From Lingula anatina (Eukaryota; Animalia; Brachiopoda): DNA of 64,000 nt. The translations under genes were made by a program, and so were the position numbers. The notes beneath the pieces were generated by a model that was not told the origin of the DNA, did not search any database, and saw nothing but the letters and a program-made list of their open reading frames with translations. The stretch covers positions 3,100,001 through 3,164,000 of the forward strand of contig CM120642.1 in the NCBI GenBank assembly GCA_051362555.1. The letters are read 5' to 3'. This document shows positions 10,976-62,555 of this stretch, one piece after another (the first letter of the stretch is position 1; the number at the start of each line of letters is the position of its first letter).

Positions 10976-11534
10976 TACATGCATGTATTCAATTCAATGA
11001 CGTTGATTAACACAATTGTACAATTATTTAATTCAATTATGCTGAAAGGTCATTTTGAATATTAAAAAATTAATAACACTAAAATTTAAAATTAAATAAG
11101 ATAAAAAAATTCTGAATTTGACAGCAAACCCATGTTACTTTTCTCAGAACTTCTGCGAAAAGAAGGTTCTTTAAGACTAGAATTTATGTGATTCTCAAAA
11201 TGAAAGACTTTATGATGTCCTTAATATTTCTTGTCAACTTTATTTGTTGATATAGGGGTGAAATCTTTGAAAACTAAGAATATAGATTTTACTTATTTTC
11301 ATGCTATTGCAACTGTTGCCGTGTAATGACTTTGGCAATATTTACCCCAAATGTGCCAAACTGTATTTTTGTTTAACCGGACTTGAATAGCAATTTGTTT
11401 TGTTAAAAGGCATTTGTAAATCTCCATTAATGCAAGATATTTTTACAAAAGTTTGTTTACTGGAATGTGCATTTTTATGTTATTTTTAAAATGGAGCAAT
11501 AAGAATAATGTTTTAACACTTTTTTATGCTTAGT

Positions 11535-11905
11535 TCTAAAATTATAAAATGTGACAATTTGCCTAGAAGTTGAACAACAAGTGACATCTTTGTAAGAGAC
11601 ATTGCAAATCCAGAATGTTTCTAAGGTGAGATCTCTCTCTCTCTCTCTCTCTCAGCCTGATAGTGAACCAGAAACTAGAGTGTTTTCTTCTTACCAGACA
11701 AATAAGCAGATGTCTTTCACAAGCATTTACTTGTTTTCCAAGAGTTTTAAGATTGTCTAGAAGACCACGAGTTTGCTTTGTGAACTGTAGTTAAAAACAA
11801 TCATAAAATATAGAGAGTCTATGAGTAAAGCATTCATTTTTACAGGCCACAGTGGAGCAAATAGGATCTGATTTACTAAGTGGTATGGAGCAGCAGAGGA
11901 AAATG
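11535..11905 (+). pseudogene. Decayed DHX9 linker/MTAD exons upstream of copy B
   Basis: Reads NVTICLEVEQQVTSL*ETLQIQNVSK|gtgag (in-frame TAA). The exon at 11656 has lost ~110 nt, including WSPPQ..NWNPW, relative to 48269-48402. Exon 11846-11905 reads ATVEQIGSDLLSGMEQQRKM. Confidence 0.7.
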
Positions 11906-12744
11906 GTATCCAAGTTTGTCTGTCTGTTTGTGTTTTCCTTTACCCATGTGTGATAGAACTGGCATTCATGTGTAACATTTGCATGCATTAATGACAGATA
12001 CATGATGAAGTCATTTGTTCTCCATGTAAAAGCCACCATAACTGGACTTGTGATTCCCCTTTATAGCAATCCAAGCCAGCTAGGATTTTGAAGGCATTCT
12101 AAGTGCATGAATCACTACTTGTTGAACTTATCTGTATACAATTTAATCTTTTAGAAGATGATTTGACAGAAAGATGTTGCAAATAATACTCATAGTCATC
12201 GTTCTTTAGACTTGGTAGTCAGCCACCTTGTGACAGTTTGAAAATAGCATGAGAGTCTCGCCATATCCAGAAATTGACTTATCCAATGAATGGTGTATTT
12301 GGATAACCTGTGTTTTAGCATAGCCTAGCTTTGAGCTTTTTCTTTTTCCCAATATGTAACAGAGTTATTAGGCGAGCGACAGAAGGCCAAAATTTTCAGA
12401 TTTAGTGTCCCCTTTATACACAGACGTGTATTATGTATCATTTGAAAGCTCACAGTCTGCTGGTCAAAGTTAGCCATGGTGTGGAAATGTTATGGGTAGT
12501 GTCCAAAATATAAGAATAAATGTTATTTACCCACTAAAACTAGTTACATATTAACTTTTGGTGGGAAAATCTTGGCTTGGAAGACTTCAGTTATAAATCA
12601 TATAACTTTTACATAATGATACAACATAAATGTACTGAAATTCAGTGAACAACAACCCACTTTATTGTCAATGCTCATTACTACTCAGAATAAATGCTTA
12701 TTGTGATTTTATAAATTTAAATGATCTACTCTTCTTTTGTCTAG

Positions 12745-15700
12745 ATGATGAGAGAGAGAGGAGAACTGCCTGTCCATTCATACAAGGAGGAAATATTAAG
12801 AACAATTCATCGTAGTCCCGTGACTTTAATAAGAGGAGCCACTGGATGTGGTAAAACCACCCAGGTAAGGCATAATGATGTAGTAGATAGAGAGGGGTTG
12901 AAGGTGTCAACAGACACTTAATTTAACCATTTCGCCTGTTTAAAGTAGTCTAGATTAATGACTGCAGCACTTTAGGTTTTTTCAAATTGTTAACCCAAGA
13001 CAGGTGTAACTTTAATACATTGATAAGAAATGACTGATTGAATAAAGCAAATATTAAATGCACCAATTTATCATCAATTCAGGTGAATTTTTATTTTCTT
13101 TTGGCTGATTTAAAAATCATGCATAGCAGATGCCTTATTAAGCAGAACTTGATATTTTGTTCAATTTGTCCCATAATGGAATTTCCTTTGCTAATATGTT
13201 AATTTTTGGGTTTCATTTTCATCCTCAGGTTCCGCAGTTCATCATTGATGAGTTTATAGAGGCAGGTAGAGGATCTCAGTGCAATGTTGTGATTACACAG
13301 GTGAGTTTATAGAGGCAGGTAGAGGATCTCAGTGCAATGTTGTGATTACACAGGTGAGTTTATAGAGGCAGGTAGAGGATCTCAGTGCAATGTTGTGATT
13401 ACACAGGTGAGTTTATAGAGGCAGGTAGAGGATCTCAGTGCAATGTTGTGATTACACAGGTGAGTTTATAGAGGCAGGTAGAGGATCTCAGTGCAATGTT
13501 GTGATTACACAGGTGAGTTTATAGAGGCAGGTAGAGGATCTCAGTGCAATGTTGTGATTACACAGGTGAGTTTATAGAGGCAGGTAGAGGATCTCAGTGC
13601 AATGTTGTGATTACACAGGTGAGTTTATAGAGGCAGGTAGAGGATCTCAGTGCAATGTTGTGATTACACAGATGAGTTTACAGAGGCAGGTAGAGGATCT
13701 CAGTGCAATTTTGTGATTACACAGGTGAGATATGCTTTGAAAGTCCATATGCACCTTGTTCATCACACTGTATGTTTTTACTGGTAGATGACAATAAATG
13801 TGAATGAATGCCTGTAAATTTTTCAAACAAAACCAAGAATTCCATACAGTGTAACAGTGTGGATAGTCAAGATGAAAAAACTGCCAAAATATAGCAATTT
13901 GGAGTTTTCAAAGACATCGGTATTAAGGGCCTTTTCAGAATCAGTTGATCTGTAGACAAACTAGTCTGTGGATCAAATATGGTGAGCAGTTGACACTGGA
14001 TTCCCACCTCCCACTTGGACCAGTTAGTCTGCGGATCAACTGGTTCTGAACAGGCCCTAAGACTACAGCCTCAATCACTGTTCTCATGTTAGTAGGCTTG
14101 TTAAGGACCAAAAAATGGCCAAACGCTGCATTTTGTAGTACAAATGTCTAACTTGGCATAAATGTTCCTTGGGCCAAAAGAAAATTTTTTATGCTATGGA
14201 TACATTAATTAGCATAAATTATGCAAATTAGGTGCCAAAATATATAATATTTCATATTTCCATTAATATTTGGCCTAGAAACATGTATAGATTATCAAAC
14301 CTGACTAAATTAGGGACAAGGAACCCATTTTTGATCATTTGGAAGCAATTGGTGGCCATTTTGTGCCTCAAATCCAAGATGGCCGCCACCCGCCATTTTG
14401 AAAGTGGACATAATTTTGCTATTTTATGTTGAATTTTGAAGCGTTTGGTCTAACTATACTTGATATATATATCGATTCTTACTATTTTGGGGGTGCAAAA
14501 GTCATTTTTGATATTGTTATGGTGATAGTAGGTGATTTGAAGGAACAAAGGGGGTGTTTTAAGTGCCTACCAAGATATGTGTGAACGCTGCAAAACCATG
14601 GATATTAATAACCCGTATTCAAATATATGTCAATGCAATTTTTTGTTATATACCATCGCTATTGGACAATATTATTAGCAAAAAAAACCCTCATTTTTAC
14701 CATTATGGAGGCCATTGTGGCCGTTTTGTCCCTCAAATACAAGATGGCTGCCAAAAACCATTTTGAAATTGGGCATAATTTGCTACTTTGAAACTATATG
14801 TATTACATCTTTGTAAATGAGTAATACGTCATTTTATATTATTTTCTGGTGCAGAATACATTATTTGTTTCATAAAGTTTTTGCCTCAAATCCAAGATGA
14901 CCCTCATACGCCATTTTCAAATTGAGCATTATTCACCATTTTGAAACTATCACACCTTCATAAGCGTGCCATACGTCATTTTTGATTATTTCCTGGTGCA
15001 GAATGCATTTTCGGTTTCACCTAATTTGCATAATTTATGCTAATTAATGTATCGATAGAGGGCGTCTCTTTGGATAAAAAATTTTCTTTTGGCCCAAGGA
15101 ACATTTATGCCAAGTTAGACATTTGTACTATAAAATGCAGCGTTTGACCTCTTAACAAGCCTATTATGTGGACTAGTTAGTCTGTAGATCAACTGGTTCT
15201 GAACAGGCCCTAAGACTACAGCCTCAATCACTGTTCCCATGGACTAGTTAGTCTGCAGATCAACTGGTTCTGAACAGGCCCTAAGACTACAGCCTCAATC
15301 ACTGTTCTCATGTAGGCTAGTTAGTCTGCAGATCAACTGGTTCTGAACAGGCCCTAAGACTACAGTCTCAATCACTGTTCCCATGTGGACTAGTTAGTCT
15401 GTAGATCAACTGGTTCTGAACAGGCCCTAAGACTACAGTCTCAATTACTGTTCCCATGGACTTACAAAGATCTTATGATCAGTTGCTAAATGTGAAGTAC
15501 CATGGAAAGTTAGTGATTCAAAAGTACAAAGTAAGACACAGCTTTTGTAGTTTCTCCTCTGCCAACTAATTGTTAGGAATGTTAACATTAAATTGCAGTA
15601 AAAACAAAAACAAATAATATTATTTGGAAATATTCCTTTATAAATAAAGAAAAGGTATGCTACAAAATCTGCTGCAGTTATAAAAGCAAAAAATTACATT

Positions 15701-18700
15701 ATTTTGCCCTGCAATTAATATTACAGCAAAGTAAAGAATAAGCTGTTCACAGAAATTTACTAAGATGGCATCAAACAGAGACAGACCGCTAAAATAATTT
15801 TCTTATCATAACAAGTACATGTATTTGTAAAAAAGCTTATGAAAAAAATGCATGCAATAAACTAGAAACCAACATTGAGTTAAATTATAAATTGTCTCCT
15901 CCAGTGACCTATAACAAAATTAATTAACAATTAATTAATTAATTAACAATTAACAAAATTAATTAACAATTTCATTATCAATTTTGTTACACATTTAAAC
16001 ATTCTCTTTAATCAGAATTTTTGTACAACACAAGTGTCTCAGTAAACGCGTAGACTCACCAACTGAGTTTTCTTTAAACTTCATAGCTCACATTTTCTGC
16101 AAGACCAAAGATGCTATCTGGGTTGGTGCAAGCTGCATTGGTAACATTTTACAAAAATAAATTCTCAAAAGATAAGTAATTAAAGAATATTAACCAAATC
16201 ATATATAAAAGGTGAAGTATTGGTGTCGCATATTTAAGATTGTGATCAGACTAGTTCATAATGCATTTCCATTATGCCTGTATCTTTTCCATTATTATTA
16301 TATTTTAACAATGTACGAAGTTTTCAGTGTTTGTATAATTGTATATGACCATTTAAGTGCTGATGCAGCACACAACTTGCTTGCTCTCACATAGAGTTAA
16401 ATATTGCCTCTAGCATATTTCTGTCATACGGATGTTCCATAATTCTTGCTAGTTGGTGCTAAAGTTTACATGCCATGCTTTTAAAGAAGATGGCAGACTT
16501 TCACATCCATGAACTTTAATATGTTGGCATGTCAAGTCTGACGTAAGTTTCCAGCCCTCAAGTGAAAGATCACCAGATTCGTGGTATTGAAGCAACTTTT
16601 CCAATGCTTTCATGGAAAGGGACTCTTCTTTTTCAAAGATGCTTTTCCATGCAGCCATTCCCCTGTCTTCACTTGAACTGAATTCCGATGGACTTTTATG
16701 AGAAGTGTATATATAAAATCTTTGAGAAGTCAAGTGCTGCATAAAGATGTCAGTTATAGTAAGCATCATCTCCATATCACATAAAGTAGCACTCAGACTT
16801 AGTCCATGTACTTTTGCATGCTGTGACAGCACATCTAGGAATATTGATTCTGGGATGTCCTCAATAGTATAATGCTTACAAAACTGCTTCAGAACCAATT
16901 CTGATGTAAGCTGGTCTTTCGCTAAGATATCCATGCACCTTAACTACTCTATGTCAGAAGTGTTATTCATTGTGAAAAAATACTGTAACAGAATGTCAGC
17001 ATTCCTTTCTGCAGCTTTGTCACAGCTTCCATGGACCTCTGTATGCTGTGACAGCACATTCAGAAACAATGTCTTCTCCACTGCTGACAGGGTTCTGGTA
17101 GTATGGGTCTGGTAAAGTTGTTTGAGCACTTCTTTAGATATGTTTTCATCATCAGCTAAGATTTTCATACATTCTTTCTGCTCTGAGTTAGTGATGTCAC
17201 TGCTTATTAAGAAATCATGTAACACAAATCACAGCAATTCCTTCTGCAGCAGAATAATTGCTACCATGGATTGCTGCATGCTGTGACAGCACATTCAGAA
17301 ACAATGTCCTCTCTACTGCTGACAGGCTTCGGAATTTGTGAGTTTGGTCAAGTTGTTTGAGCACTTCTTCAGATGTGTTTTCATCCTCAGCTAAGATTTT
17401 CATACATTCTTTCTGTTCTGAGTCAGTGATGTCACTGCTTATTAAGAAATCTTGTAACAGAATCACAGCATTTCCTTCTGCAGCAGAACAACATCTACCA
17501 TGGACATCTGCATGCTGTGACAGCACATCCAGAAACAATGTCTTCTCCACTGCTGACAGGGCTCTAGTGGTATGTGTGTGGTAAAGTTGTTTGAGCACTT
17601 CTTCAGATGTGTTTTCATCCTCAGCTAAGATTTTCATACATTCTTTCTGCTCTGAGTCGCTACCATGGATCTCTGCATGCTGTGACAGCACATTCAGAAA
17701 CAATGTCCTCTCTACTGCTGACAGGCTTCTGGATTTGTGGGTTTGGTAAAGTTGTTTGAGCACTTGTTTAGATGTCCACCTATCCTTGGCTAAGATTTTC
17801 ATACAATCTGACTGCGCTGAGTCAGTGATGTCACTGCTTGTTAAGAAATCTTGTAAAAGAATCACAGCATTTCCTTCTGCAGCAGAACAACATCTACCAT
17901 GGATTTCTGCATGCTGTGACAGCACATTCAGAAACAATGTCTTCTCTACTGCTGACAGGCTTCTGGATTTGTGGGTTTGGTAAAGTTGTTTGAGCACTTT
18001 TTCAGATGTGTTTTCATCCTTGGCTAAAATTTTCATATATTTTTTTTGCTCTGAGTCAGTAATGTCACTGCTTGTTAAGAAATCTTGTAAAAGAATCACA
18101 GCATTTCCTTCTGCAGCAGAACAACATCTAACATGGATTTCTGCATGCTGTGACAGCACATTCAGAAACAATGTCTTCTCTACTGCTGACAGGCTTCTGG
18201 ATTTGTGGGTCTGGTAAAGTTGTTTGAGCACTTCTTCAGATGTGCATCTATCCTTTGCTAAGATTTTCATACATTCTTTCTGCTCTGAGTCAGTGGTGTC
18301 ACTGCTTATTAAGAAATCATGTAACACAAATCACAGCAATTCCTTCTGCAGCAGAATAATTGCTACCATGGATTGCTGCATGCTGTGACAGCACATTCAG
18401 AAACAATGTCCTCTCTACTGCTGACAGGCTTCGGAATTTGTGAGTTTGGTCAAGTTGTTTGAGCACTTCTTCAGATGTGTTTTCATCCTCAGCTAAGATT
18501 TTCATACATTCTTTCTGTTCTGAGTCAGTGATGTCACTGCTTATTAAGAAATCTTGTAACAGAATCACAGCATTTCCTTCTGCAGCAGAACAACATCTAC
18601 CATGGACATCTGCATGCTGTGACAGCACATCCAGAAACAATGTCTTCTCCACTGCTGACAGGGCTCTAGTGGTATGTGTGTGGTAAAGTTGTTTGAGCAC

Positions 18701-21700
18701 TTCTTCAGATGTGTTTTCATCCTCAGCTAAGATTTTCATACATTCTTTCTGCTCTGAGTCGCTACCATGGATCTCTGCATGCTGTGACAGCACATTCAGA
18801 AACAATGTCCTCTCTACTGCTGACAGGCTTCTGGATTTGTGGGTTTGGTAAAGTTGTTTGAGCACTTGTTTAGATGTCCACCTATCCTTGGCTAAGATTT
18901 TCATACAATCTGACTGCGCTGAGTCAGTGATGTCACTGCTTGTTAAGAAATCTTGTAAAAGAATCACAGCATTTCCTTCTGCAGCAGAACAACATCTACC
19001 ATGGATTTCTGCATGCTGTGACAGCACATTCAGAAACAATGTCTTCTCTACTGCTGACAGGCTTCTGGATTTGTGGGTTTGGTAAAGTTGTTTGAGCACT
19101 TTTTCAGATGTGTTTTCATCCTTGGCTAAAATTTTCATATATTCTTTCTGCTCTGAGTCAGTGATGTCACTGCTTGTTAAGAAATCTTGTAAAAAAATCA
19201 CAGCATTTCCTTCTGCAGCAGAACAACATCTACCATGGATTTCTGCATGCTGTGACAGCACATTCAGAAACAATGTCTTCTCTACTGCTGACAGGCTTCT
19301 GGATTTGTGGGTTTGGTAAAGTTGTTTGAGCACTTTTTCAGATGTGTTTTCATCCTTGGCTAAAATTTTCATATATTTTTTTTGCTCTGAGTCAGTAATG
19401 TCACTGCTTGTTAAGAAATCTTGTAAAAGAATCACAGCATTTCCTTCTGCAGCAGAACAACATCTAACATGGATTTCTGCATGCTGTGACAGCACATTCA
19501 GAAACAATGTCTTCTCTACTGCTGACAGGCTTCTGGATTTGTGGGTCTGGTAAAGTTGTTTGAGCACTTCTTCAGATGTGCATCTATCCTTTGCTAAGAT
19601 TTTCATATATTCTTTCTGCTCTGAGTCAGTGATGTCACTGCTTGTTAAGAAATCTTGTAAAAGAATCACAGCATTTCCTTCTATAGCAGAACGACATCTA
19701 CCATGGATCTCTGCATGCTGTGACAGCACATTCAGAAACAATGTCTTCTCTACTGCTGACAGGCTTCTGGATTTGTGGGTTTGGTAAAGTTGTTTGAGCA
19801 CTTTTTCAGATGTGTTTTCATCCTTGGCTAAAATTTTCATATATTTTTTTTTGCTCTGAGTCAGTAATGTCACTGCTTGTTAAGAAATCTTGTAAAAGAA
19901 TCACAGCATTTCCTTCTGCAGCAGAACAACATCTACCATGGATTTCTGCATGCTGTGACAGCACATTCAGAAACAATGTCTTCTCTACTGCTGACAGGCT
20001 TCTGGATTTGTGGGTCTGGTAAAGTTGTTTGAGCACTTCTTCAGATGTGCATCTATCCTTTGCTAAGATTTTCATATATTCTTTCTGCTCTGAGTCAGTG
20101 ATGTCACTGCTTGTTAAGAAATCTTGTAAAAGAATCACAGCATTTCCTTGTTCAGCAGAACAACATCTACCATGGACCTCTGCATGCTGTGACAGCACAT
20201 CCAGAAACAATGTCCTTTCCACTGCTGACAGGGCTCTAGTGGTATGTGTTTGGTAAAGTTGTTGGAGCACTTCTTCAGATGTGTATTTATCCTTGGCTAT
20301 AATTTTCATACATTCTGACTGCTCTGAGTCAGTGGTGTCATTGCTTGTTAAAAAATATTGCAGCAAAATCATAGCATTTCCTTTTGCAGCTGTGTCATGC
20401 ATGTACCAGTGGTATCTGTGGATCAATGCATGCTGTGACAGCACTTTCAGAAACAATGTCCTCTCTACTGCTGACAGGCTGCTGGATTTATGGGTCTGGT
20501 AAAGTTGTTGGAGCACTTCTTCAGATGTGTTTTCATCCTCAGATAAGATTTTCATACATTCTGACTGCTCTGAGTCAGTGGTGTAATTGCTTGTTAAAAA
20601 ATATTGCAACAATATAACAGCATTTCCTTTTGCAGCTGTGTCATGAATGTACCACTGGTATCTGTGGATCTCTGCATGCTGTGACAGCACATTCAGAAAC
20701 AATGTCTTCTCTACAGCTGACAGGCTCCTGGATTTGTGGGTTTGGTAAAGTTGTTTGAGCATTTCATTAGATGTCTGTGTATCCTTTTCTAAAATTTTCA
20801 TATATTCTTTCTGCTTTGAGTCAGTGATGTCACCGCTTGTTAAGAAATCTTGTAAAAGAATCACAGCATTTCCTTCTGCAGCTGAATTACAACTACCATG
20901 GACCTCTGCATGCTGTGACAGCACATTCAGAAACAATGTCTTCTCTACAGCTGACAGGCTCCTGGATTTGTGGGTTTGGTAAAGTTGTTTGAGCATTTCA
21001 TTAGATGTCTGTCTATCCTTTTCTAAAATTTTCATACATTCTTTCTGCTTTGAGTCAGTGATGTCACCGCTTGTTAAGAAATCTTGTAACATAATCACAG
21101 CATTTCCTTCTGCAGCTGAATTATAACTACCATGAACCTCTGCATGCTGTGACAGCACATTCAGAAACAATGCCTTCTCCACTGCTGACAGGGCTCTAGT
21201 GGTATGTGTCTGGTAAAGTTGTTTAAGCACTTCTTCACATGTGTTTTCATCCTTGGCTAAGATTTTCATACATTCTGACTGCTCTGAGTCAGTGGTGTAA
21301 TTGCTTGTTAAAAAATATTGCAACAATATAACAGCATTTCCTTTTGCAGCTGTGTCATGCATGTACAACTGGTATCTGTGGATCTTTGCATGCTGTGACA
21401 GCACATTCAGAAACAATGTCCTCTCTACTGCTGACAGGCTTCTGGATTTATGGGTCTGGTAAAGTAGTTTGAGCATTTCTTTAGATGTCCCCCTACCCTT
21501 AGCTATGATGTTCATACATTCTGACTGCTCTGAGGTGTCATTGTTTGTGTGTAGGTCCTGTCTCTGATATACATGTAACAATAGACAACAGGCAGCAAGA
21601 CCAACTCCTCTACCACTGCAGTGTTTATCCAGGTCAAAGACTAAATTTTTCAGTGTATCTCTCCCCTCTTCATTGGGAAGCATTTTGATTTGTTGAAGAA

Positions 21701-24700
21701 CGAGCTTCAGCAAGGTTTGATTTCTAGCAAGTATTTTCAGAATTTTTGTCTTTTTCTCATTCTTACGAAGTTGCTTGATAAAGATTTCAGCAATGGCTAG
21801 CCAGGTTTTGAGTTCTGTTTTGGGTGTTTGTGACAGAAGTTTCCAGTTTTCACTTAAATGTAATGTATTATCTCCTTCAGCATTATGTAACAGTTCCAAC
21901 AGCTCTGTCTTTAGAAACATGGTGAAAGCTTTTTGTTTTGGGGAGGCAAGTTTGAAAACTTTTTGCTTCAAATTTCTGCACACTTTAGCATTTTTATTTG
22001 AATCACAGCCAACACAAAGAAGGATAGAAGCAAGTTTCTTCTGCTGAACTTTGTTTACTTTTGTAAATAGTTCAGGATAAAGTTCAAGCAATTTGACAAT
22101 ATCCTCCACATGCCTCTTGTCTGCTGGAGTGGTTTCTGATGAAAGCAACGACTGGAGTTTCACTACACTGAGTGATTCTTCATTTCCAGGATTTTCAGAA
22201 TTCATGGACTCTGTAGTTTCATCAACTTCACTGTCATGATGAAGAACTTCTACATAACTACATGTATTTACCTCTCCATTTTTTATTGGTGCTTGATGGG
22301 TCTTATCAATTTGGTGCTTTTTTTCATCTAAAGAAAGGAATTATATATTGTCATCCATCACACGAGCAAAAATAAAATTTATAATCCCATGTAAAATTCA
22401 GAAAATAAGAGTTTGACCTTGTGTATCATCATATTTGAGTTTCTAATCTTTATATGTAAACTAGTTGCAGTTAGGTAGTAGACACTTTCATACAGATTTG
22501 GGAATAATTTGATCATTTTACCTCCTGAATTATTTTCTGTATTTTCACTGTCTGAGTCATTGCCACTGCCACTGTCCTCTCCAGAGTCATATTTCTCATA
22601 GTCTTTATAATTAGCATCAGAGGGCAAGGTGTCACATACCACTGGTCTTTGAATAAGCCCATGACACACTGGGAGACCTTCCATTTTTAGTAGATCAGCC
22701 ACAGTCTCTGTAAGTATATATATAATATAGATGGCTATGAAAAATTAGTTGCAGTTTTTACCTGTATAAAACCGAAAAATATAATAGTGTTTCATAATAG
22801 TTAATAATAGCTGTGACAGCACATATTACCACAATTGATGACCCACCATGATTATGTATATTAAAAAAATAAATAGATAAAAAATATTAATAATATAATT
22901 CAGAGTACATAAACTGATACACATTGGGATGGGTGTTACTGTTCAGTGTATATTTTTCTGAATAATTTAAAAACCAGTAATATTCAGCTGAAGTATATTT
23001 CTCACCAGCAAATGTTTGTTGATGCATCATATACAAAGCAGTAAGCAGTTGTGCTGTGATTTGTTCAACAGGTTGGTCATAGTTCCTCTCTAGGAAACTT
23101 TCTAAGCATTCTAAACACTGTGCTTCTTCTTCATCAGGGTGCTGGGACACAATGGCTTGTGTATCTTCCTCTGTAAACTTCAGATGCAAAGCCAACTCCT
23201 TCCACATGCATGACACACGGGGTGATATATGTGCAAATATGGATGCCCAAACTTCACACTTAAATAATCAAAAATACTTTTGAGAAAAATGGTCAGTGTA
23301 GGAAGATACAATGGGATAAATGTACACTCAAGTAAATGCATGATTTGCTTGCAAAAGATTATACATTTTGATTAAGATGTTTTGGCTTTACGTTTATAAA
23401 AAAATAAAAATTGAAATTTTAAAAATAAAAAAAAATGTTTATTTTGATTCTTATATATAAATTACCATTGCAGCAGTTTCTTTTTCTGACTTCATAATGT
23501 GGCAACTCTTTTGATAAGTTACTGTGCAAAATTCCACTTCAATATCTTGCTCAACAGTCAGTGGCCTCTCTTGCTTTATTTGAGTGCCAGATGTAGAGGG
23601 CAATTCTATATTGGTTTGGGTTTCTGGTTCTCCTACAACAGAGGATTGATAGGTGAAAGATTTGAAAGTACATATTTATTACACTGCTTATAAAAACATT
23701 AATGTTATCAAATATATATCACCTGGTTGATGGTTGTTAAAATTTTGTTTATATTGAATATTCATTTTGTTACTGATTTGTATTCCAATCAGTTTCAATG
23801 TATTGGTTTATTCATTACAAAGTTCCTTAGTGATATACTTGTAGAAAAGCTGATACAAAGAAAACTATTTTCCAAAACTTAGCTACAGTGTGCAACTAAG
23901 AATTTATCAAATTAGTTGTAGTTATAAATTGTTTTTTTTTTTTTTTTTTTTTTTTGTTATTAAATAACAAATGTAGCATTATTTTAAAGAAATTCTGTTT
24001 CTCAAGACTGCTTAATAATATATTGCAAATACTTATAGGTGCAGGTAGCCGGTCACTTTGATTTCAGAGGTGCTGCGAGAGCAAAACTTACCTGGTTTTG
24101 TGAAGAATTCCCAGGCTGTAGCCAACTCTTGTTCACAAATGTATACATCCACATACAGCTCTTCTCCCTCCATCTCTTTAAGTTCTTGGGTGATGAACTC
24201 ATTTGTCAGAAACCTAGATAAATCCCCAGACTTGTACTCTGTCCAGAAACTCTGTAACTTCTCTACAGCATCAAACATTAACACACACTCCACACAACCT
24301 TCAATGAGCTTGATTAAATGTGCCCCTCTTTTGATGAATGAGTCAGCTGCCCTTTTAAATTGAGCCAGGTCTTGAAGCATTTCTTTTGTAAAATACTTGT
24401 CTGCCTTTTTGGCGATCTCTTTTGTTTCCCAGTACTTGACATGCATTTTAGCATGAAGAACTAAAAAAAAGGGGAAAATAACATATTTACTGTTACTTGT
24501 ATGAATGATATAATATATATTTACTATTGGTATTTGACTTTGATAAATTGTGTAGTTGTAGAGGAAAACTTTTACTGAACATCCATTTAGCTATCTTCTT
24601 AACTGACCAAGATAAACCAACTAAATATGTTGCATACATTTTTCAATAAAAAGCTTATTTCAGCATCTTCTCATTTCATATTCTTATTTTATTATATGTA

Positions 24701-25119: not shown

Positions 25120-25194
<75 letters not shown>

Positions 25195-26554: not shown

Positions 26555-26604
<50 letters not shown>

Positions 26605-28886: not shown

Positions 28887-28930
<44 letters not shown>

Positions 28931-45231: not shown

Positions 45232-45237
45232 AATAAA
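45232..45237 (+). terminator. Putative poly(A) signal of DHX9 copy B
   Basis: Paralog of 10044-10049. Confidence 0.45.
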
Positions 45238-45346
45238 AGTGAAAAACAGGCCACCTTGTGTTTCTATTCTATATAGTGAAACAACCACAAATGTTACACA
45301 AGAAAATATTATATCCAAAATTATAAATGTAAAAGTTCAGTTTTAA

Positions 45347-46274: not shown

Positions 46275-46349
<75 letters not shown>

Positions 46350-49885: not shown

Positions 49886-49986
49886 GTGAGTTTATAGAGG
49901 CAGGTAGAGGATCTCAGTGCTATGTTGTGATTACACAGGTGAGTTCTGCTTTGAAAGTCCATATCCACCTTGTTCATCACAATGTA

Positions 49987-51196: not shown

Positions 51197-53616
51197 CGGT
51201 AAAGTCTTGAAAATTTCGTCGACAGACGATTTTCCGCCGACGTAATTTTTTTCCCTTTGAAAACTTCGTCGACCTTGAAAATGAGGTACTCGATAATTTT
51301 TGAAAAGTTCGTCACCAAATATGGCGGCGTTGTCCTGCTCAAACGTGAAGTAATGCATCAGTTGATTCAAGACAATGATATGATCAGGATATCATTGCCG
51401 ATAACACTCTCAATGGGAGATAGGAACAATAGTGCGCCCCTGCGAGCAGTTACTCACAATATAGATGGTTTAGATGTGAATTCACGTTCTCAATTGCGGG
51501 AACGTCGGCCTTTTGTCTTTAGTTGCATTACTATTACCTGGCTTAAGGTGCGTTATCAAGCCGGCAAATAGAAGTCACAGTCATTTGTAACGCCGTTATT
51601 GTTATCGGCGGCTGTCCTAAATGAGGAAGACACAATGAAAAAATCAAGATATTATCTCGAATGAAATGTACCCGTCACTTCTATTCATGCCCATGTTCAA
51701 TTTAGGACCATTTAACGATTACCTGGCTCGTACATGGAGATCATTCGCAATGCGAATGGGACGAGATGGCAATTTTCATATCTTCAGCGGAGAATCGTTC
51801 GCGTAATATGGTCAACAGATCGTTCGCGATCCAAACGAGACGAGAAGATAATTTTCATATTTGTAGCGGACTCCGTTCGCATAAGATCATCAGCGGGAGA
51901 TCGTTTGCGATTCGAGAGAGACGAAAAGGCAATCTTCATATCTTCAGCGGGAGATCGTCGCGATGTAAGCTTGAATAAAATGCACTTTTCATATTTGTTC
52001 AAGGGAACTTCGTTCGTGGAAGATAGTCAGCAGGAGATCATTATTTTAACCCCCCCCCCTCCCCCTTTGAATTTTATAAATAATATATATTTTTTTATTT
52101 TATCTTTAACCCCCTCTCCCTTCCCCCGCTCACGGCATATCTTCAGCGGAGAATCGTTCGCGTAATATCGTCAAGACTTTGTTCGCGTAAGATCGTCAGA
52201 GGGAGATCGTTCGCGATCCGAGCGAGACGAAAAGGCAATTTTCATATCATCATCGGGAGATCGTTCGCGATGTAAGCAAGAATGAAATGCAATTTTCATA
52301 TTAGTTCAAAGGATTTAGGGAACTTTGTTCGCGGAAGATCGTCAGCGGGAGATTATTTAACCCCCCCCCCCCCACGCACACACACACACACTTTGGATTT
52401 CTAAAAAATATTCATTTTCATTTGATCTTTGATCCGCCCCCCCTTCCCCCGCTCACGGTATATCTTCGGCGGAGAATCGTTCGCGTAATATCCTCAGGAC
52501 TTGGTTCGCGTAAGATCATATCAATGGGAGATCGTTTGCGATCCTAGCTTGACGTAAAGACAATTTTCATATCTTCATCGGGAGATTGTTCGCGATGTAA
52601 GCAATAATAAAATGCAGTTTTCATATTAGTTCAAGGAACTTAGTTTGCGAACGATCGTCAGCGGGAGATCATTATTTTAACCCCGCCTCCCCCTTTGAAT
52701 ATTATAAATAATATATTTATTTAGTTTTATCTTTAACCCCCCTTCCCCGCTCACGGCATATCTTCGGCGAAAAATCGTTTGCGTACTATCGTCAGGACTT
52801 TGTTCGCGTAAAATCGTCAGAGGGAGATCGTTCGCGATCCGAGCGAGACGAAAAGGCAATTTTCATATCTTCTTTGGGAGATCGTCCGCGATGTAAGCAA
52901 GAATGAAATGCAATTTTCATATTAGTTCAAGGGATTTAGGGAACTTCGTTCGCGGAAGATCGTCAGCGGGAGATCGTTCGCGATCCTTGCTAGACGAAAA
53001 GGCAATTTTCACATCTTCATCGGGAGATTGTTCGCGATGTAAGCAACAATAATATGCAGGTTTCATATTAGTTCAAGGAACTTAAATTGCGGAAGATCGT
53101 CAACGGGAGATCATTATTTAACTCCCTGTAAATTTTTAGGAAGTTACAGATGGTATTTTTAGAAGGCCTGACACCCAATCCTGGGAAAAGCCTTGCATGC
53201 AACAAACGTTCCCATGTGCGTAATTTTTTTTAACATGTCGCGTCCAGGTTATGATGCAAGGTTGCAATTACGCTTATCTTGATCCTTCTCCTCTATCAGG
53301 AGGTATGTTTCTTACCGAGAAAATAATTCTCAACCTGTTTTCCGGTACAGTAAGTTAAATATAACTTAATCGAGATGCACTAATAAATAGATTATTATTT
53401 ACCACCAGAAAATGACTTAGGAAGTAGTAATAAATATCCCACCATATAGGAGGGTCAAAGATAACAGTCGCTAAGGATAAAAGCCCAAAGGCCGGATTTT
53501 TGAAAATTTCGTCATACCCAGGAGTCGGGGAGAGGTAATTTTGAAAAATTAGTCGGATTTACTCAATTAAAAATATTAATTAATTTTTAAGCGATGAAAT
53601 TTTCAAGACTTTACCG
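51197..53616. mobile_element. 2.4-kb TA-TSD non-autonomous DNA transposon inserted in the LINE
   Basis: TIR CGGTAAAGTCTTGAAAATTTC(G/A)TCG with TA duplication. Removing it restores the RT frame KTNML-ALNDGKTE. Internal CpG-rich degenerate tandem repeats at ~51770-53120. Confidence 0.88.
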
Positions 53617-53964
53617 TAGCACTAAATGATGGAAAAACTGAACTAATATGGTTTACATCAAGGTCTAAGCCAGACAGGGGAAATGAAATGAAATCTGATA
53701 TTTGTATCGGTGGTGTCAACATCAATCCATCTAGCTATGTGAAAGATTTAGGTGTCACCTTTGATCAGTATGCAACTATGGATAGACGGATCTCTGAAAT
53801 TTGCAAATCGGCATCATACTCACTTTGGCGAATTAGTAAGATACGTGACTTACTGGACAAAACTTCAACTGAAAAACTAGTCCATGCTTTCATTACTTCT
53901 AAGCTTGATTATTGCAACAGTCTCTTATATGGTTTGGGCAAAAATCATCTGAACAAACTTCAAT

Positions 53965-56577
53965 AAGGTCGCGCGTCAAGGTTATTTTCAGTTGCACCCT
54001 GGATTATGCACGCTTGCTCCGCAAGGTGTCGCCTGTGGTGGGGGGGCATCACAGCCCATATGGTTACTGTGGGCGAAGGTGACAGGTACTTCCAAACATT
54101 TTTTCATAACTGTCATTTTTCCTTATTCTATTCATGAATTTGATATTTACGGCAATTGAAAATGTGGCACCGGCAAAAGTGAATCTAGGTGCGTTGACAG
54201 GCCGCACAGGTGTCCCCAATTAACCGCCGCCAGAGAAGAGACCCCAAGCATTAAACAACACAACCGGTAGATATTGGAAATTTGGAGAAAGTTAAGCAAC
54301 TGAGGCTTTATTAGATTTGGACAGAAATCGGGGGTAATGCCCAGTGACATGCCAAACCCCTAAGTTCAAGTCTTGGCCCTTGACACCTGTAACGCACCCC
54401 TTAGTCAAGAATCTGAACAAATCAATGTTGGGCAGGTACAGGGTATACTCTATTTTCTACTGGTGTTTTGTGATTTTATCAACTTGATTGTCAAGTGCCA
54501 GACCTTTTGTTCTCAGATACTAGTAGCAAACTTTATCAGATAACAATCTGACACTAACCAAGCTGCACTAACAGCGCTGTAAACCCAGTTATCAATGCTG
54601 TCATCTTTACCTGTATCTTTACCGGTATTATGCCAGTGGTACTGTTTGATACATTTGAGTAAGGAAATATGCTTTTATGCTTACATTCATTTGTAATACG
54701 TTAGCATCAACCTGTTAATAAAAACTTGGAAACTTTCAATGTTATTACACAATAACAGTATAATGATGGGAGATGTTATGATTAAATGCTTAGAAGAATG
54801 ATAAAAACAAATTATGTGAAATATAAAATGAATTGATTTTATTTGGGTTATTTATTTATTTATTTCAAACCAATTAATTATCAAACATGAAGCTTATTTT
54901 AAGAAACATTCGCAGATATATGAAATATAACCCTGCTGGTACACAGATCTACAGTTCTAAAATGCAAATACCAAGTACCTTTCACACACCACTGATGAGA
55001 TGTGAATAATCATATGTATAAAGTAGTAAAAATATCACAAAATGTGTGTAAGCAAGATATTTCTACAAGTAACCTCATTAATCAGTCAGGAAACTTCATA
55101 ATGCACCCAATAAATGTAGAAATTTGAGCCAGAGAAATTCTACATACAGGCATGACAGATTTACCATATATTGCCATCAAACCTTAACTGAATGGGCATA
55201 GAAAGAACAAAGTGAGTCTCCCTCCCATTAAAAATGAGAAATAAAAATAAATAAATAAATAACAGATACTGTCATTCTTAATACTGAAAAACAATGGCAC
55301 CTTGCAGCCTTCACTGCCTCACTATTTGCAGACAATGTTCTAGTCACTGGAACTGTGTACTTTTGATGAGGCATAGATGCAAGAATAACTTCTTTGAAGT
55401 ATATTGTGAAGGTCTCTTTTGTCATAAATCTGCCATGTATAACCAGAATGAACATATTGCGATTCACACCGCAGCAGCTTGTCTTAGTAAGGACTCAACC
55501 AAATTGAAAACTTGTGGCATAGCTTCAGGGACAAGATCACACCATCTATCCTTGCTGTGATGATGGATCTACTAGTACATTATCTATGTCTTGTCCTCCT
55601 AGTTTCTCTAATACCATTTCCGCTGATCTATATGCTCACATCAATCTCTACAGCTTTACCAACTGCTACACAGTTTTTACATCTGAAAGTATAAAGCAAA
55701 AATTGTAATAAAGCACTATCAATTTACTTATTAGATATTGATTCGAGGGCAAGAGAAAAATGCAGAAACCTCATATGATAATCAAGATAATTGAAAATCA
55801 AATATGCATAATCAAATTAATAGCTTTAATTGTACATACTACTGATGATTTAACCTTTTAAACTTCAGCATAAATTTCTCTTGTTAAAGCATAGACACTT
55901 TATTAAAATGTGCTTGAACAAATAATAATAATAATAAACAACCTGCACACAAGATGGAACATGGAGGTCAATTGCCACAAAATAAGTTGATTTGTACTTG
56001 GTAGCCTGAGAAATAGTATCAGGTATTAATTTGAGCAGTAAATTGAGTAATAATACCACCGAGTTAACAATGACACAAGCATATGGTGTTGTGTAACAAA
56101 ATTCATGCATTACTTGCTGTGGCAGTGTCCTCCCCAACCTATCATGCACCGCAGGTTTTGATTTTCAATGTCATCAAAAATGTTTATTGTTGTTAGTTTG
56201 ATTTACGTATCTGCTATTCAAATAATATCGTTTGGAAAATAACTAACTCATTTAATTATGCTTTTGCAACATGAAATCATCATTAACTTTGCCGGTTCAC
56301 GTGTATACAGTACCTTGCTATCAGTGCTGCTCTTTTCTCCCTAACTCGTCACTGACAGGCTAACCACATCGTTTCATAACAACGCTGGTATGCTCCTTTA
56401 CTTTTGGTGTTGGCAGTTTCGCCCCGGGGACATCGTTTTTGGTTAAAAACAACGTATCGTTTTCACCCATCTATACATTGCTCCTGTACAATATGGCCGC
56501 TTGCTGCCCCCCCAAGGGAAAAATCGTAGCACGTGGGTAGTTACGCAAGACCTGTGACGTATAACGCGCGCAAGGTT
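53965..56577. mobile_element. 2.6-kb decayed DNA transposon (ISL2EU-like?) inserted in the LINE
   Basis: Removing it together with one AT copy restores NKLQ-LIQNSAARLV. Ends are imperfect inverted repeats. A minus-strand relic, ILASMPHQKYTVPVTRTLSANSEAVKAARCH (~55290-55400), resembles the lead-in to SWIM fingers of transposon accessory proteins. Confidence 0.7.
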
Positions 56578-57297
56578 ATTAATTCAAAATTCTGCAGCTA
56601 GGCTGGTAACTAAAATGGGATGGAACAGCCGAGAGCATATAACACCTGTTTTGATGGAACTTCACTGGCTTCCAGTAAGAGAGAGAATTTTATTTAAAAT
56701 TTTATGTGTCATTTTTAAAGCAGTCACTGAGAATAAACCACTTTATATCTCAGAACTTATGAAGCAACATCAGCATGGAAGAGTTACCAGGTCTTCAACT
56801 TTTAGTCATTTACTTTTAGAACACAGTGTCTTAGAGAAAAAAGCTGGTAAATTTTACGGTGAAAGGGCATTTATGATATATGCACCCAAAGTTTGGAACA
56901 CCTTACCCTCTGAAATACGAGCAGCAGGTGACATAGATACTTTTAAAAAGCTTTTGAAAACTCATATTTTTAGAATAGCCTATCAGTAAATATCATATAG
57001 TTCATTTTAGTTTTTAATAAGGTGTACTGTAATTTTATGATTAATTTTAAATGTTGTCACTTTAGGTTCTTATCATTTTAGAATATGAATAATTGTTTCT
57101 TTAAATTAGTTCTTAGTCCTTTAAAATTGTAATGTGTTCTTATATTAGTATTGTGTTATTTAGCTCTTTTAAGTGAATGTTGTAAGGCGCATTGAGATTT
57201 TTAATGGAATGCGCCATAGAAAAATAAATTATTATTATTATTATTATTATTATTACTTCAAGCATATTTCTGTCATACACATGTTTCATAATTCTTG

Positions 57298-60200
57298 CTA
57301 GTTGGTGCTGTCTTTTACACGCCATGCTCTTAAAGAAGATGGCAGACTTTCTCGTCCATGAACTTTGATATGTTGGCATGTCAAGTCTGACATAATTTCC
57401 CAGCCCGTAAGTGAAAGATCACCTGATTCATGGTATTGAAGCAACTTTTCCAATGCCTTCATTGAAAGGGATTTGTCTTTTTCAAAGATGCTTTTCCATG
57501 TAGTCATTTCCCTGTCTTCACTTGTTTTCAATTCTAATGGTTTTCTATTAGAAGTGTTAAAATAAGAACTTTGAGAAGTCAAGAAGTGTATAAAAATTTC
57601 AGTTATGGTTAGCATTATGTCCATATGATATGAATAAGCACCTAGACTTATTCCATGTACTTGTACATGCTGTGACAGCACATCTAGGAATATTGATTCT
57701 GGGATGTCCTTAATAGTGTGAGGTTGGCAAAACTGGTTCAGAACACATTCTGATGTGAACTCGTCTTTGGCTAAGATATCCATGCAACTTAACTGCTCTG
57801 TCTCAGTAATGTTCTTGTTTGTGAAATAATATTGTAACAGAATCACAGTTTTCCCTTCTGCAGATTTGTAAGAACTCCGATGGACCTCTGCATGCTGTGA
57901 CAGCACATCAAGAAACAATGTCTTCTCCACTTCTGTTAGAGTTCTAGTGTTGTGGGTCTGGTGAAGTTGCTTAAGCACTTCCTCAGATGCCCATAAATCG
58001 TTGGCTAAGATTTCCATACATTTTGACTGATCTGAGTCAGTGATGTCATTGCTTGTTAAGAAATATTGCAACAGAATCACTGCATTTCCTTCTGCAGCAG
58101 GGAAACATCTACCGTGGACTTTTGCATGCTGTGACAGCACATCCAGAAACAATGTCCTCTCCACTGCTGACAGATTTCTGGTGGTATGGGTCTGGTAAAG
58201 TTGTTTAAGTATTTCCTCAGAAGTCCACCTATCCTTAGCTAAGATTTTCATATATTCTGACTGATCTGAGTCAGTGAAGGCATTGCTTGTTAAGAAATAT
58301 TGCAACAAAATCACAGCATTTCCTTTGGCAGCAGAAATACAGCTACTGTGGACATCTGCATGCTGTGACAGCACATTAAAAAACAATGTCCTCTCCACAG
58401 CTGACAGATTTCTGGTGGTATGGCTCTGGTAAAGTTGTTTGAGCACTTCCTCAGATGCCCATGAATCCCTAGCTAAAACTTTCATACATTCTGTGTAATC
58501 TGAGTCAGTGGTGACGATTGTTGACAAAAAATGCAACAAAATCACAGCATTTCCTTTTACAGCAGAAATACAGCTACCGTGGACCTCTTCATGCTGTGAC
58601 AGTACATTCAAAAACAATGTTCTCTCCACTGCTGACAAGGTTCTATTCGTATGGGTCTGGTAAAGTAGCTTCAGCAATGCCTCAGATGCCCATCCTTTTA
58701 GAGTTCTAGTGTTGTGGGTCTGGTTAAGTTGCTGGAGCACTTCTTTAGATGTGGCTTTATCCTTGGCTAAGATTTGCATACATTTTGACTGCTCTAATTC
58801 AGTGATGTCATTGCTTGTTAAGAAGTATTGCAACAGAATCACAGCATTTCCTTCTGCAGCAGAATGACATCTACCATGGAATTCAGCATGCTGTGACAGC
58901 ACATTCAAAAACAATGTTCTCTGCACTGCTGACAAGGTTCTATTGGTATGGGTCTGGTAAAGTAGCTTCAGCAAAGCCTCAGATTCCCGTGCATCTTTGG
59001 CTAAGATTTTCATACATTTTGACTGCTTTGAGTCAGTGATGTCATTTTGTGTTAAAAAACACTGCAACAGAATCACAGTCTTTCTTTCTAGAGCAGGGAA
59101 ATATCTACTATGGTCCTCTGCATGCATTGACAGCACATCCAGAAACAATGTCTTCTCCACTGCTGACAGGGTTCTAGATTTGTGGGTCTGGTTAAGTTGC
59201 TGGAGCACTTCTTCAGATGTGGCTTCATCCTTGGCTAAGATTTGCATACATTCTGACTGCTCGAATTCAGTAATGTCTTTGCTTGTTAAGAAGTATTGCA
59301 ACAGAATCACAGCATTTTCTTCTGCAGCAGAATAACATGCACCATGGACCTCAGCATGCTGTGACAGCACATCAAGAAACAATGTCTTCTCCACTGCTGA
59401 CAGGGTTCTAGATTTGTGGGTCTGGTTAAGTTGCTGGAGCACTTCTTCAGATGTGGCTTCATCCTTGGCTAAGATTTGCATACATTCTGACTGCTCGAAT
59501 TCAGTAATGTCTTTGCTTGTTAAGAAGTATTGCAACAGAATCACAGCATTTTCTTCTGCAGCAGAATAACATGCACCATGGACCTCAGCATGCTGTGACA
59601 GCACATCAAGAAACAATGTCTTCTCCACTGCTGACAGGGTTCTAGATTTGTGGGTCTGGTTAAGTTGCTGGAGCACTTCTTCAGATGTGGCTTCATCCTT
59701 GGCTAAGATTTGCATACATTCTGACTGCTCGAATTCAGTAATGTCTTTGCTTGTTAAGAAGTATTGCAACAGAATCACAGCATTTTCTTCTGCAGCAGAA
59801 TAACATGTACCATGGACCTCAGCATGCTGTGACAGCACATCAAGAAACAATGTCTTCTCCACTGCTGACAGGGTTCTAGGTTTGTGGGTCTGGTTAAGTT
59901 GCTGGAGCACTTCTTCAGATGTGGCTGCATCCTTGGCTAAGATTTGCATACATTCTGACTGCTCGAATTCAGTAATGTCTTTGCTTGTTAAGAAGTATTG
60001 CAACAGAATCACAGCATTTCCTTCTTCAGCTGAATGATATCTACCATGGACCTCAGCATGCTGTGACAGCACATCCAGAAACAATGTCTTCTCCACTACT
60101 GACAGGGTTCTAGTGTTGTGGGTCTGGTAAAGTTGTTTGAGCACCTCTTCAGATGTTCTCCAACACTTGGCTAAGATTTTCATACATTTTAACTGCTTTG

Positions 60201-62555
60201 AGTCAGTGATGTCATTTTGTGTTAAAAAACACTGCAACAGAATCACAGCATTTCCTTTTGCAGCAGAATAACATGAACCATGGACCTCAGCATGCTGTGA
60301 CAGCACATCCAGAAACAATGTCTTCTCCACTACTGACAGGGTTCTAGTGTTGTGGGTCTGGTAAAGTTGTTTGAGCACCTCTTCAGATGTTCTCCAACAC
60401 TTGGCTAAGATTTTCATACATTTTAACTGCTTTGAGTCAGTGATGTCATTTTGTGTTAAAAAACACTGCAACAGAATCACAGCATTTCCTTCTGCAGCAG
60501 AATAACATGTACCATGGACCTCAGCATGCTGTGACAGCACATCCAGAAACAATGTCTTCTCCACTGCTGACAGGGTTCTAGATTTGTGGGTCTGGTTAAG
60601 TTGATGGAGCACACCTTTAGATAAGGCTTCATCCTTGGCTAAGAATTGCATACATTTTGACTGCTCTAATTCAGTAATGTCTTTGTGTGTTAAGAAGTAT
60701 TGCAACAGAATCACAGCATTTCCTTTTGCAGCAAAAAAACATGTACCATGGACCTCAGCATGCTGTGACAGCACATCCAGAAACAATGTCTTCTCCACTG
60801 CTGACAGGGCTCTAGTGGTATGTGTCTGGTAAAGTTGTTTGAGCACCTCTTCAGATGTTCTCCGATACTTGGCTAAGATTTTCATACATTTTAACTGCTT
60901 TGAGTCAGTGATGTCATTTTGTGTTAAAATACACTGCAACAGAATCACAGCATTTCCTTCTGCAGCAGAATAACATGTACCATGGACCTCAGCATGCTGT
61001 GACAGCACATCCAGAAACAATGTCTTCTCCACTGCTGACAGGGTTCTAGATTTGTGGGTCTGGTTAAGTTGATGGAGCACACCTTTAGATAAGGCTTCAT
61101 CCTTGGCTAAGGATTGCATACATTTTGACTGCTCTATTTCAGTAATGTCTTTGCTTGTTAAGAAATACCGCAACAGAATCACAGCATATCCTTCTGCAGC
61201 AGAATAACATCTACCATGGACCTCAGCATGCTGTGACAGCACATCCAGAAACAATGTCTTCTCCACTGCTGACAGGGTTCTAGATTTGTGGGTCTGGTTA
61301 AGTTGATGGAGCACACCTTTAGATAAGGCTTCATCCTTGGCTAAGGATTGCATACATTTTGACTGCTCTAATTCAGTAATGTCTTTGTGTGTTAAGAAGT
61401 ATTGCAACAGAATCACAGCATTTCCTTCTGCAGCAAAAAAACATGTACCATGGACCTCAGCATGCTGTGACAGCACATCCAGAAACAATGTCTTCTCCAC
61501 TGCTGACAGGGCTCTAGTGTTGTGGGTCTGGTAAAGTTGTTTGAGCACCTCTTCAGATGTTCTCCGATACTTGGCTAAGATTTTCATACATTTTAACTGC
61601 TTTGAGTCAGTGATGTCATTTTGTGTTAAAAAACACTGCAACAGAATCACAGCATTTTCTTCTTCAGCAGAATAACATCTACCATGGACCTCAGCATGCT
61701 GTGACAGCACATCCAGAAATAACCTCCTCTCCACTGCTGACAGGATTCTAGTGTTATGGGTCTGGTAAAGATGATTGAGTACTTTTTTAATTATCTCCTT
61801 GCAATTGGTTAATACTTTCTTTGACTTATTAATCTTTATACAGGGCTTTAGTTTTGCAGATCTTCTGTCCTGAATCTGCAGCAGACTATAGTCAGCAAGA
61901 CCTTCTTCGATTTTTTGAAGAACAAACTTCAGCAAGGTTGTGTTTCTAGCAAGAATTTTAAGAATGTTTGTCTTTTTTCTCTCGTTGTTTCTTAGTTGCT
62001 TTGTAAAGATATCAGCAATGGCTTGCCAGGTTTGAAGCTCTCCTTTAGGTGTTTGTGACAGAAGTTTCCAGTTTTCACTTAAATGTAATGTATTATCTCC
62101 TTCACCATTATGCAGCAGTTCTAACAGCTCTGTATTTAGAAGACTGGCAAAAGCTTTATGAAGGGAGGCAAGTTTCAAAATTTTTTGCTTCAAATTTCTG
62201 CACACTTTTGCATTTTTAACTGAATCACAGCCTACACAAAGAAGCATGGAAGCAAGTTTTTTCTGCTCATCTTTCTTTACTTTTGTAAAAAGTTCAGGAG
62301 AAGGTTCAAGTAATTTTACAATATCCTCCACATGCTTCTTATCTGCTGGAGTGTTTTTTGATGAAAGCAAAGACTGGAGCTTCACTATGTGGAGTGATTT
62401 TTCATTTTCAGGACTTGGTTTAGTATTCATAGAGTTTGTAGTTTCATCAGCTTCACTGTCATGATAAAGATCAACTTCTACATAACTACATGTATTGGCC
62501 TCTCCCTTTTTTAGCCATGCTTGGTAGGTCTGGTCACTCTGGTGTTCATTTTCAT
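57298..62555 (-). CDS. Giant terminal exon of the nested gene (unit C): ~1750 aa, N-terminal helical region + ~18x78-aa repeats + cap; upstream exons off-window
   Basis: Uninterrupted ORF. Acceptor CAG at 62558-62556 is homologous to the acceptor at 22330-22328. Repeat consensus [78 protein letters not shown]. Paralogous to 16449-22327. Confidence 0.9.
57650..61790 (-). repeat. Coding tandem repeat, 234-bp unit (~18 units)
   Basis: Same unit as 16800-21550, with all units in frame. Confidence 0.95.

Follow-up and report, generated by a model that had tools for sequence, protein, structure and literature searches.

We analyzed a 64,000-nucleotide stretch of the Lingula anatina genome (assembly GCA_051362555.1, contig CM120642.1, positions 3,100,001 to 3,164,000; hereafter the window) and found a head-to-tail segmental duplication, whose unit combines a 5'-truncated tail of the RNA helicase gene DHX9 with a nested antisense gene encoding DED, TRADD-N, Death and repeat domains. 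We consider it moderately probable that the array is a copy-number immune module of the kind represented by RCCX (STK19-C4-CYP21-TNX), in which the nested gene is multiplied and reshuffled while exchange with a working copy preserves the DHX9 tails. A co-functional pair of helicase and adaptor is unsupported. No report of the locus was found in the literature searched (Lingula together with DHX9; invertebrate DHX9 tandem duplication or paralogs). What is new is the position of the antisense gene inside DHX9, together with headless helicase copies whose frame is open and a repeat without a name; the nested protein and the duplication belong to kinds already known, namely the DEDD2-clade TRADD-N expansion and partial tandem duplication as in RCCX.

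Layout of the array and the headless helicase copies

Self-BLAST of the window and tblastn with full-length DHX9 relatives define three DHX9 modules: A, of which the tail is present, B, complete at 36.6 kb, and C, represented by its head. Self-BLAST and exon mapping pair positions 1-9437 with 30432-44624 and position 12745 with 49336, corresponding to a period of 36,591 nucleotides. Module A, on the plus strand as are B and C, contributes 18 exons of the 3' part of the gene, which begin in the middle of RecA1 and continue through the RGG tail to the stop (1-9437); its 5' end lies beyond the window, and it may be the full-length parent. Module B extends from a first decayed exon at 11548 through an exon that begins with two methionines and carries Walker A (the Met-Met exon, 12745-12864), the VVITQ exon (13229-13300) and 18 further exons (30414-44624) to the stop at 44624. 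Module C is seen from 48125 to 49885, including its Met-Met (49336-49455) and VVITQ (49814-49885) exons, and continues as intron to the window end. The two junctions are homologous: the spacers leading from the RGG stop to the next Met-Met (8698-13360 and 43883-49945) align in five BLAST pieces at 81-91% identity. The initial annotation had proposed a unit repeated at least three times; its offsets and the two homologous junctions hold, with module B alone a whole unit. It had also placed the same antisense gene in the intron after VVITQ of both B and C, where we find it at 16452-28221 and 57301-62586, respectively.

An exon of module A (4384-4545) matches RNA helicase A and then MLE as its best PDB sequences and is 100% identical to two L. 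anatina DHX9 fragments. A module A exon also gives an OB_NTP_bind match (E 5e-14), the same residues being found in module B, whose RGG exon is also present. The module B helicase comprises 20 GT-AG exons with an open frame of 860 codons from the Met-Met at 12745 and no internal stop. It contains the RecA1, RecA2, OB and RGG regions, all seven DEAH motifs checked are intact, and it shares 76-79% identity with mollusc and annelid DHX9. Its DEAH/RHA core is closest to DHX9/MLE, an assignment made on module B, as module C shows just two exons.

Modules B and C are headless, i.e. they are without both double-stranded RNA-binding domains (dsRBD1 and dsRBD2) and without working upstream exons. This follows from a comparison with the N-terminal Lingula DHX9 protein in RefSeq (P0125), whose residues 1-277, containing both dsRBDs, are unmatched in the window (tblastn, best E 0.93), and whose residues 278-382, from the linker region after dsRBD2, match three decayed exons upstream of the Met-Met in B (11548-11915) and in C (48125-48650). 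The lesions include a stop common to both modules, a deletion removing most of the second exon in B, further stops and a frameshift in C, and a lost donor in both (that of the third exon in B). Amino-acid decay relative to P0125 is graded, starting at roughly one third in the edge exon and reaching zero at the VVITQ region, albeit with small numbers. The absence of dsRBDs proposed in the initial annotation can thus be read from B and C only, the 5' end of A falling outside the window.

P0125 itself has two dsrm matches, and its sequence ends directly behind the VITQ exon, at the start of the nested intron. P0125, a mid-gene DHX9 fragment with the adjacent accession (P0001) and a protein of the nested family (P0122) all come from one 706,884-base contig, in an assembly that has DHX9 pieces on three contigs. 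Because the three proteins share a contig and P0125 ends at the nested intron, the full-length, dsRBD-bearing DHX9 probably also hosts the nested gene. Co-amplification would then be forced by geometry, since duplicating the nested gene by unequal crossover copies part of DHX9 as well. P0125 holds the 40-residue Met-Met exon twice in tandem, and a different contig carries a further N-terminal fragment (P0126).

The nested gene and its 78-residue repeat

Nested gene B consists of eight minus-strand exons running from 28221 to 16452, with AG-GT boundaries and compatible phases, which encode in order a DED, a TRADD-N domain, a Death domain and a series of helical repeats of 78 amino acids. The DED exon (27846-28221) matches Pfam DED with E 2.7e-8 (34.4 bits against a cut-off of 35.9, reading its in-frame stop near 28058 as X). 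The middle exons, within 22522-26185, comprise 26185-26108, 25601-25401, a TRADD-N-like exon (24460-24092; Pfam TRADD-like_N E 4e-4, below cut-off), a linker (23632-23466), the Death domain (23258-23006; Pfam Death E 2.3e-5, above cut-off) and an acidic exon (22707-22522). The large last exon (16452-22327) encodes a unique helical region and ∼20 repeats of 78-82 amino acids. This copy is broken by the stop in the DED exon and by four lesions in the repeat exon (19821-19879, 18320, 17218 and 16945), three of them frameshifts and the fourth an in-frame stop. Of the frameshifts, one is in an A-run, where it may be a sequencing error, and two represent a single lesion that was duplicated. In an independent run, a contig of 724 bases crosses the DED stop with one letter different, the place of which is not shown. 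In nested gene C, the large last exon (57301-62586, minus strand) is an open frame of 1790 codons from stop to stop with ∼17 repeats, mostly of 78 amino acids, and a predicted α-helical solenoid structure; its 5' exons run off the window.

The TRADD-N and Death exons of nested gene B are 89-92% identical to XP_013393640, XP_013419526 and XP_013419534, its closest paralogs, which the supplement of PMC8195603 lists as TRADDN-DEDD2+Death. Membership in the DEDD2 clade rests on this identity, as the Pfam TRADD-N match itself is below cut-off. The class further combines an adjacent Death-like domain with a variable flank. Here Death scores above cut-off and the stop-interrupted DED just under it, and the flank carries 4-20 repeat motifs per copy, near-length homologs of the long antisense open reading frame being two proteins among 7986 scored candidates, both from Lingula. 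The middle exons are also matched by the RefSeq proteins P0121, P0122 and P0124. The domain content that had been read from the sequence, a DED, TRADD-N and Death protein with variable repeats, is thereby recovered in B. Its domain class, for which a role in immunity and apoptosis has been predicted (PMC8195603), suggests that the nested protein is an intracellular sensor or adaptor, whose repeat tail would bind a ligand and whose DED/TRADD-N/Death part would recruit cell-death or immune effectors.

We found no named sequence family for the 78-residue repeat in Pfam or PDB profile searches. An AlphaFold model of four repeats (15-row alignment; predicted local distance difference test 77, predicted template modeling score 0.73) is all-helical with four helices per 78 residues. 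Its best structural matches are solenoids of the importin/CAND1/TOG type (Z about 10-11, root mean square deviation 4-11 Å), its Foldseek E-values to HEAT/ARM proteins are above 0.001 and it has no Pfam match. PDB sequence searches with repeat profiles returned nothing below E 0.29, and the ESM Atlas gave no usable match for P0122 residues 370-1097 or for the four-repeat piece. Pfam matches of the repeat reading frames (CarD_C, RestrictionMunI, RL and others) were discarded as summed noise, with zero passing stretches. When searched against 1.84 billion representatives, the repeat profile retrieved three proteins: a Lingula paralog, P0144 and the bacterial repeat protein P0145 (E 4e-4), the last of which we take to be a chance repeat match.

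P0144, the strongest match outside Lingula (E 7e-12 summed over nine stretches), is an unnamed protein of 1213 residues with nine 99-residue repeats that weakly match Pfam CARD and an unannotated C-terminal part. A profile of the single Lingula repeat aligns with these CARD-like repeats at a probability of 32% (E 5e-4, 57 ungapped columns), compared with 0.85% for the best of 30 shuffled controls and 0.48% for the reversed profile. Pairwise BLAST between the two kinds of repeat is not significant, Pfam CARD matches 0 of 22 single repeat units, and no death-fold entry is among the top 50 structural matches of either the four-repeat model or the single-unit model, the latter being too poor to carry weight (predicted template modeling score 0.37). 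A CARD origin is a lead only. The repeat may be described as an unnamed, Lingula-restricted domain, a candidate ligand-binding solenoid that is possibly derived from CARD.

Variable positions recur across repeat copies (Spearman 0.60 and 0.46). The ratio of replacement to silent substitution rates (dN/dS) is ∼0.7 over the repeats, 0.4-0.5 at conserved positions and 1.22 at independently chosen variable positions in the C repeats, which is not significantly above 1 (p 0.24), so that positive selection is not shown. A value of 1.92 at variable positions in B was rejected as circular, B having helped to pick the positions. The repeat sequences thus point to a constrained scaffold with a relaxed or weakly diversifying surface, and the term 'fast-diversifying' used in the initial annotation is borne out only in part.

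Selection, expression and formation of the array

The helicase exons of modules A and B differ by 29 silent and 8 replacement changes over 790 codons; outside the RGG exon there are 23 silent changes and 1 replacement (dN/dS 0.012). The 5' exons of B and C differ by 5 silent changes and 1 replacement (p 0.002). The ancestry of the helicase exons therefore runs through constrained sequence over at least 93% of the divergence between A and B. The RGG exon of module A (9200-9437) has replacement changes, e.g. at 9241 and 9379, where the reads shown from three RNA runs and one DNA run carry the B state. Silent divergence is mosaic along the unit: between B and C it amounts to 22% in the nested gene and to 9% in the adjoining DHX9 introns (p 1e-6), and between A and B it ranges from 1% to 14% across 16 introns (heterogeneity p 1e-18; intron 11 with its minisatellite was left out). 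Together with the eroding edge at the junctions, this mosaic indirectly suggests exchange between units, for which such a pattern would be expected. The conservation of the exons had been held to speak against pure hitch-hiking. Purifying selection is real, but it is compatible with passengers, because exchange with a working copy could keep the tails clean.

Expression was assessed in five RNA runs from other animals over the stretches 5820-13300 and 27820-35180, the repeat, Death and TRADD-N exons being outside this coverage. DHX9 exons are transcribed from the plus strand, and RNA depth places the end of the module A 3' untranslated region at about 10,070. Among the splice joints listed, those into the Met-Met exon carry 15 letters that are missing from B and that encode the parental residues of P0125 (four reads in run X12, six in X15). 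Six more reads continue into an intact exon further upstream, and a loose read end matches such an intact upstream exon. No joint from the decayed upstream sequence of module B itself is among those listed for three runs. Read depth is 7.2-7.5 on the exon upstream of Met-Met and 2.0-6.6 on the Met-Met exon (three of three runs), with no step at the truncated start. As depth upstream is as high as on the Met-Met exon, there appears to be little room for extra transcripts starting there. In 80 of the 959 variant rows, 40 of 44 exonic run-by-site cells with at least four reads are fixed, as for one diploid locus, and at A/B differences the expressed alleles mix A and B states and add silent changes of their own. 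Expression of a DHX9 with intact upstream exons is thus seen; reads from these animals fit the full-length form only, and the extra DHX9 tails are likely unexpressed passengers. The DED exon has no reads in X13 and X16, two stranded libraries, and the region from this exon to 30,279 has essentially none, whereas DHX9 exons nearby did have reads. Logan contig depths, where DHX9 exons often reach two to three times the nested-B contigs, were not used as copy number.

These findings can be accommodated by an RCCX-like history. An immune-type gene would have landed in the intron after VVITQ of a single, full-length DHX9. One duplication with its breakpoint after the dsRBD2 exons would then have made the junction, so that each added copy of the nested gene brings along a promoterless DHX9 tail. 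Unequal crossover and gene conversion over ∼15 kb of near-identical DHX9 could expand, contract and reshuffle the units. Exchange would refill the silent tails from the working gene as the junction edge decays, and the nested genes would diverge, change repeat number and sometimes die, as in module B. Selection would multiply the nested gene, with the DHX9 tails as probably unexpressed passengers. If this is correct, the locus is an invertebrate case of an essential housekeeping gene serving as the recombination scaffold of a nested variable immune gene, and a very low dN/dS between tandem copies need not prove that the copies are functional.

Several points weigh against this explanation. Had either A or B been neutral for its whole branch, ∼40 replacements would be expected, and 1 is seen; between B and C, which both lie downstream of dead exons, ∼13 would be expected, and again 1 is seen. 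The time spent silent would have to be below ∼7% of the A-B divergence, which would require frequent exchange. Module B combines a broken nested gene with an intact helicase, the reverse of the simple passenger picture, and clean helicase exons next to a broken nested gene are the strongest facts against a simple dead passenger. A-B silent divergence (5-6%) exceeds the published genome heterozygosity of 1.6% (PMC4595640). The RNA donors may lack the array and may differ in array content, tissue and state; RNA depth is low, 6-25% of each run having been read; the variants are 40 of 451 and 40 of 508 rows, and the joints too are a part of those recorded (11 rows unseen). Nesting in the parent is deduced from a shared contig and gene-model ends, not from coordinates.

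It is unlikely, although possible, that the truncated copies are real genes, with a new promoter that drives, in a particular tissue, stage or state of infection, an 860-residue protein consisting of helicase core and RGG tail and starting at Met-Met. Purifying selection would then keep this slow or dominant-negative DHX9 product independently of the nested gene. The open frame with all splice sites and motifs intact, the in-frame Met-Met that begins the first intact exon and the excess of silent changes between the 5' exons of B and C would all fit. The smooth depth across Met-Met, the absence, among the joints listed for three runs, of any that starts in the upstream sequence of B itself, and the diploid look of the expressed variants speak against such genes, as does the upstream decay, which is graded without a sharp step (in small numbers), and as does the requirement of dsRBD2 for the helicase activity of MLE (PMC11498004). 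If expressed, the truncated helicases would represent naturally occurring DHX9 variants that lack dsRBDs and are under selection, and they would allow the function of the isolated core to be tested directly.

We regard it as distinctly unlikely that the array is in part an assembly product, with a real junction and two concatenated haplotypes of a shorter array, such that A and B would in part be allelic and ordinary allelic constraint would account for the purifying signal. Lingula is 1.6% heterozygous, expressed alleles of other animals differ silently from B on a similar scale, and no contig spans a whole junction. In X13, 11 exons with 15 A-B differences show seven fixed or nearly fixed sites and one mixed site among the rows listed. 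A misjoin, however, cannot create a junction that occurs twice, differently decayed and with shared lesions. The independent DNA run X3 moreover has contigs near-identical to the B junction and DED regions, plus diverged junction variants, and the RefSeq assembly also has its DHX9 pieces on three contigs.

The initial annotation suggested a helicase tail and a nested death-fold protein that are co-regulated, interact and were amplified together as an immune module, which now appears very unlikely. In its favor are the linkage of the two genes, the purifying selection seen in the helicase exons and the fact that, in brachiopods and cnidarians, TRADD-N domains are known to occur fused to RNA helicases and to RLR-like sensors (PMC8195603, section 11), but linkage follows from nesting alone, the nested 5' exons have zero reads in X13 and X16 where DHX9 exons of the same stretch had reads, the nested B copy is broken in an intact host, the two genes have different divergence histories, and the DHX9 reads come from the parental upstream exon with variants that fit one diploid locus. 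Highly improbable, too, is an inducible antiviral cassette inside DHX9, in which a dsRBD-less helicase made by each unit from Met-Met would be switched on by, or would regulate, a nested DED/TRADD-N/Death sensor with a new solenoid tail of eroded and fused CARDs, unequal crossover in the DHX9 homology reshuffling the sensor variants and so generating diversity.

Minisatellites, mobile elements and comparison with known systems

Five of the seven minisatellites in module B with a period of at least 32 span a splice site, with ∼1.2 expected (P about 0.001): 13249-13729, 27194-27858, 35187-40059 (and 5114-5809), 40613-40927 and 42302-43353. Their copy numbers differ between modules, and they are similar to the 'mirage' minisatellites known from amphioxus (PMC3087553). 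Module B also contains a pair of related elements bounded by long inverted ends. The larger one (35708-39454) is a DNA-transposon-like insertion, absent from A, within the 32-bp minisatellite of a DHX9 intron, its inverted ends measuring ∼800 bp (676 nucleotides at 98%); the other (14087-15166) lies in the intron that holds the nested gene. A 340-bp insertion of very high copy number, resembling a miniature inverted-repeat transposable element (31095-31434), is found in a module B intron and neither in A nor among the contigs from two DNA runs. The stretch 50669-56986, which follows nested gene C on its downstream side, contains fragments of a reverse transcriptase frame resembling a long interspersed nuclear element, interrupted by other repeats (RVT_1 E 3e-8 at 50669-50962; more pieces by eye at 53598-53963 and 56558-56986).

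Compared with DHX9/RNA helicase A/MLE, the module helicases share core, OB and RGG regions, modules B and C being without dsRBD1, dsRBD2 and working upstream exons. The repeat model resembles HEAT/armadillo α-solenoids in being all-helical; its scores are of the size that a common arrangement of helices alone would give, and there is no sequence family match. The likeness of the repeat to the CARD-like death-fold repeats of P0144 is a weak profile likeness, and a period of 78 residues could accommodate six helices only if the two end helices were shared.

The nested protein has the constant Death-like plus TRADD-N part and the variable C-terminal part of the DEDD2-clade TRADD-N proteins described by Kaur et al. 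2021 (PMC8195603), and does so in a brachiopod, a group in which that study counts 33 copies of the clade with constant Death-like and TRADD-N domains and variable flanks (section 11). In the supplement rows examined, the entries for the closest paralogs name no C-terminal repeat or DED, and nesting in DHX9, a tandem unit, the 78-residue array and a phase-compatible upstream DED exon do not appear in the sections and rows examined. These rows cover 31 of the 77 Lingula places in file 4 and exclude file 13, and other rows may describe a form with the repeat or the DED.

RCCX, in the parts of PMC8362596 considered, is like the Lingula array a tandem copy-number unit that comprises several genes and is centered on an immune gene, with neighboring genes truncated in the added units and genes on opposite strands, and its diversity is driven by unequal crossover and gene conversion. 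The two loci have no homology, and the Lingula immune gene sits inside an intron of the truncated gene. They differ in the state of the truncated copies: TNXA carries a deletion that shifts its frame and STK19B is reduced to 914 bases, whereas the Lingula copy keeps an open frame of 860 codons. Exchange between units has been shown for RCCX and is deduced for Lingula; the likeness is used as an analogy only.

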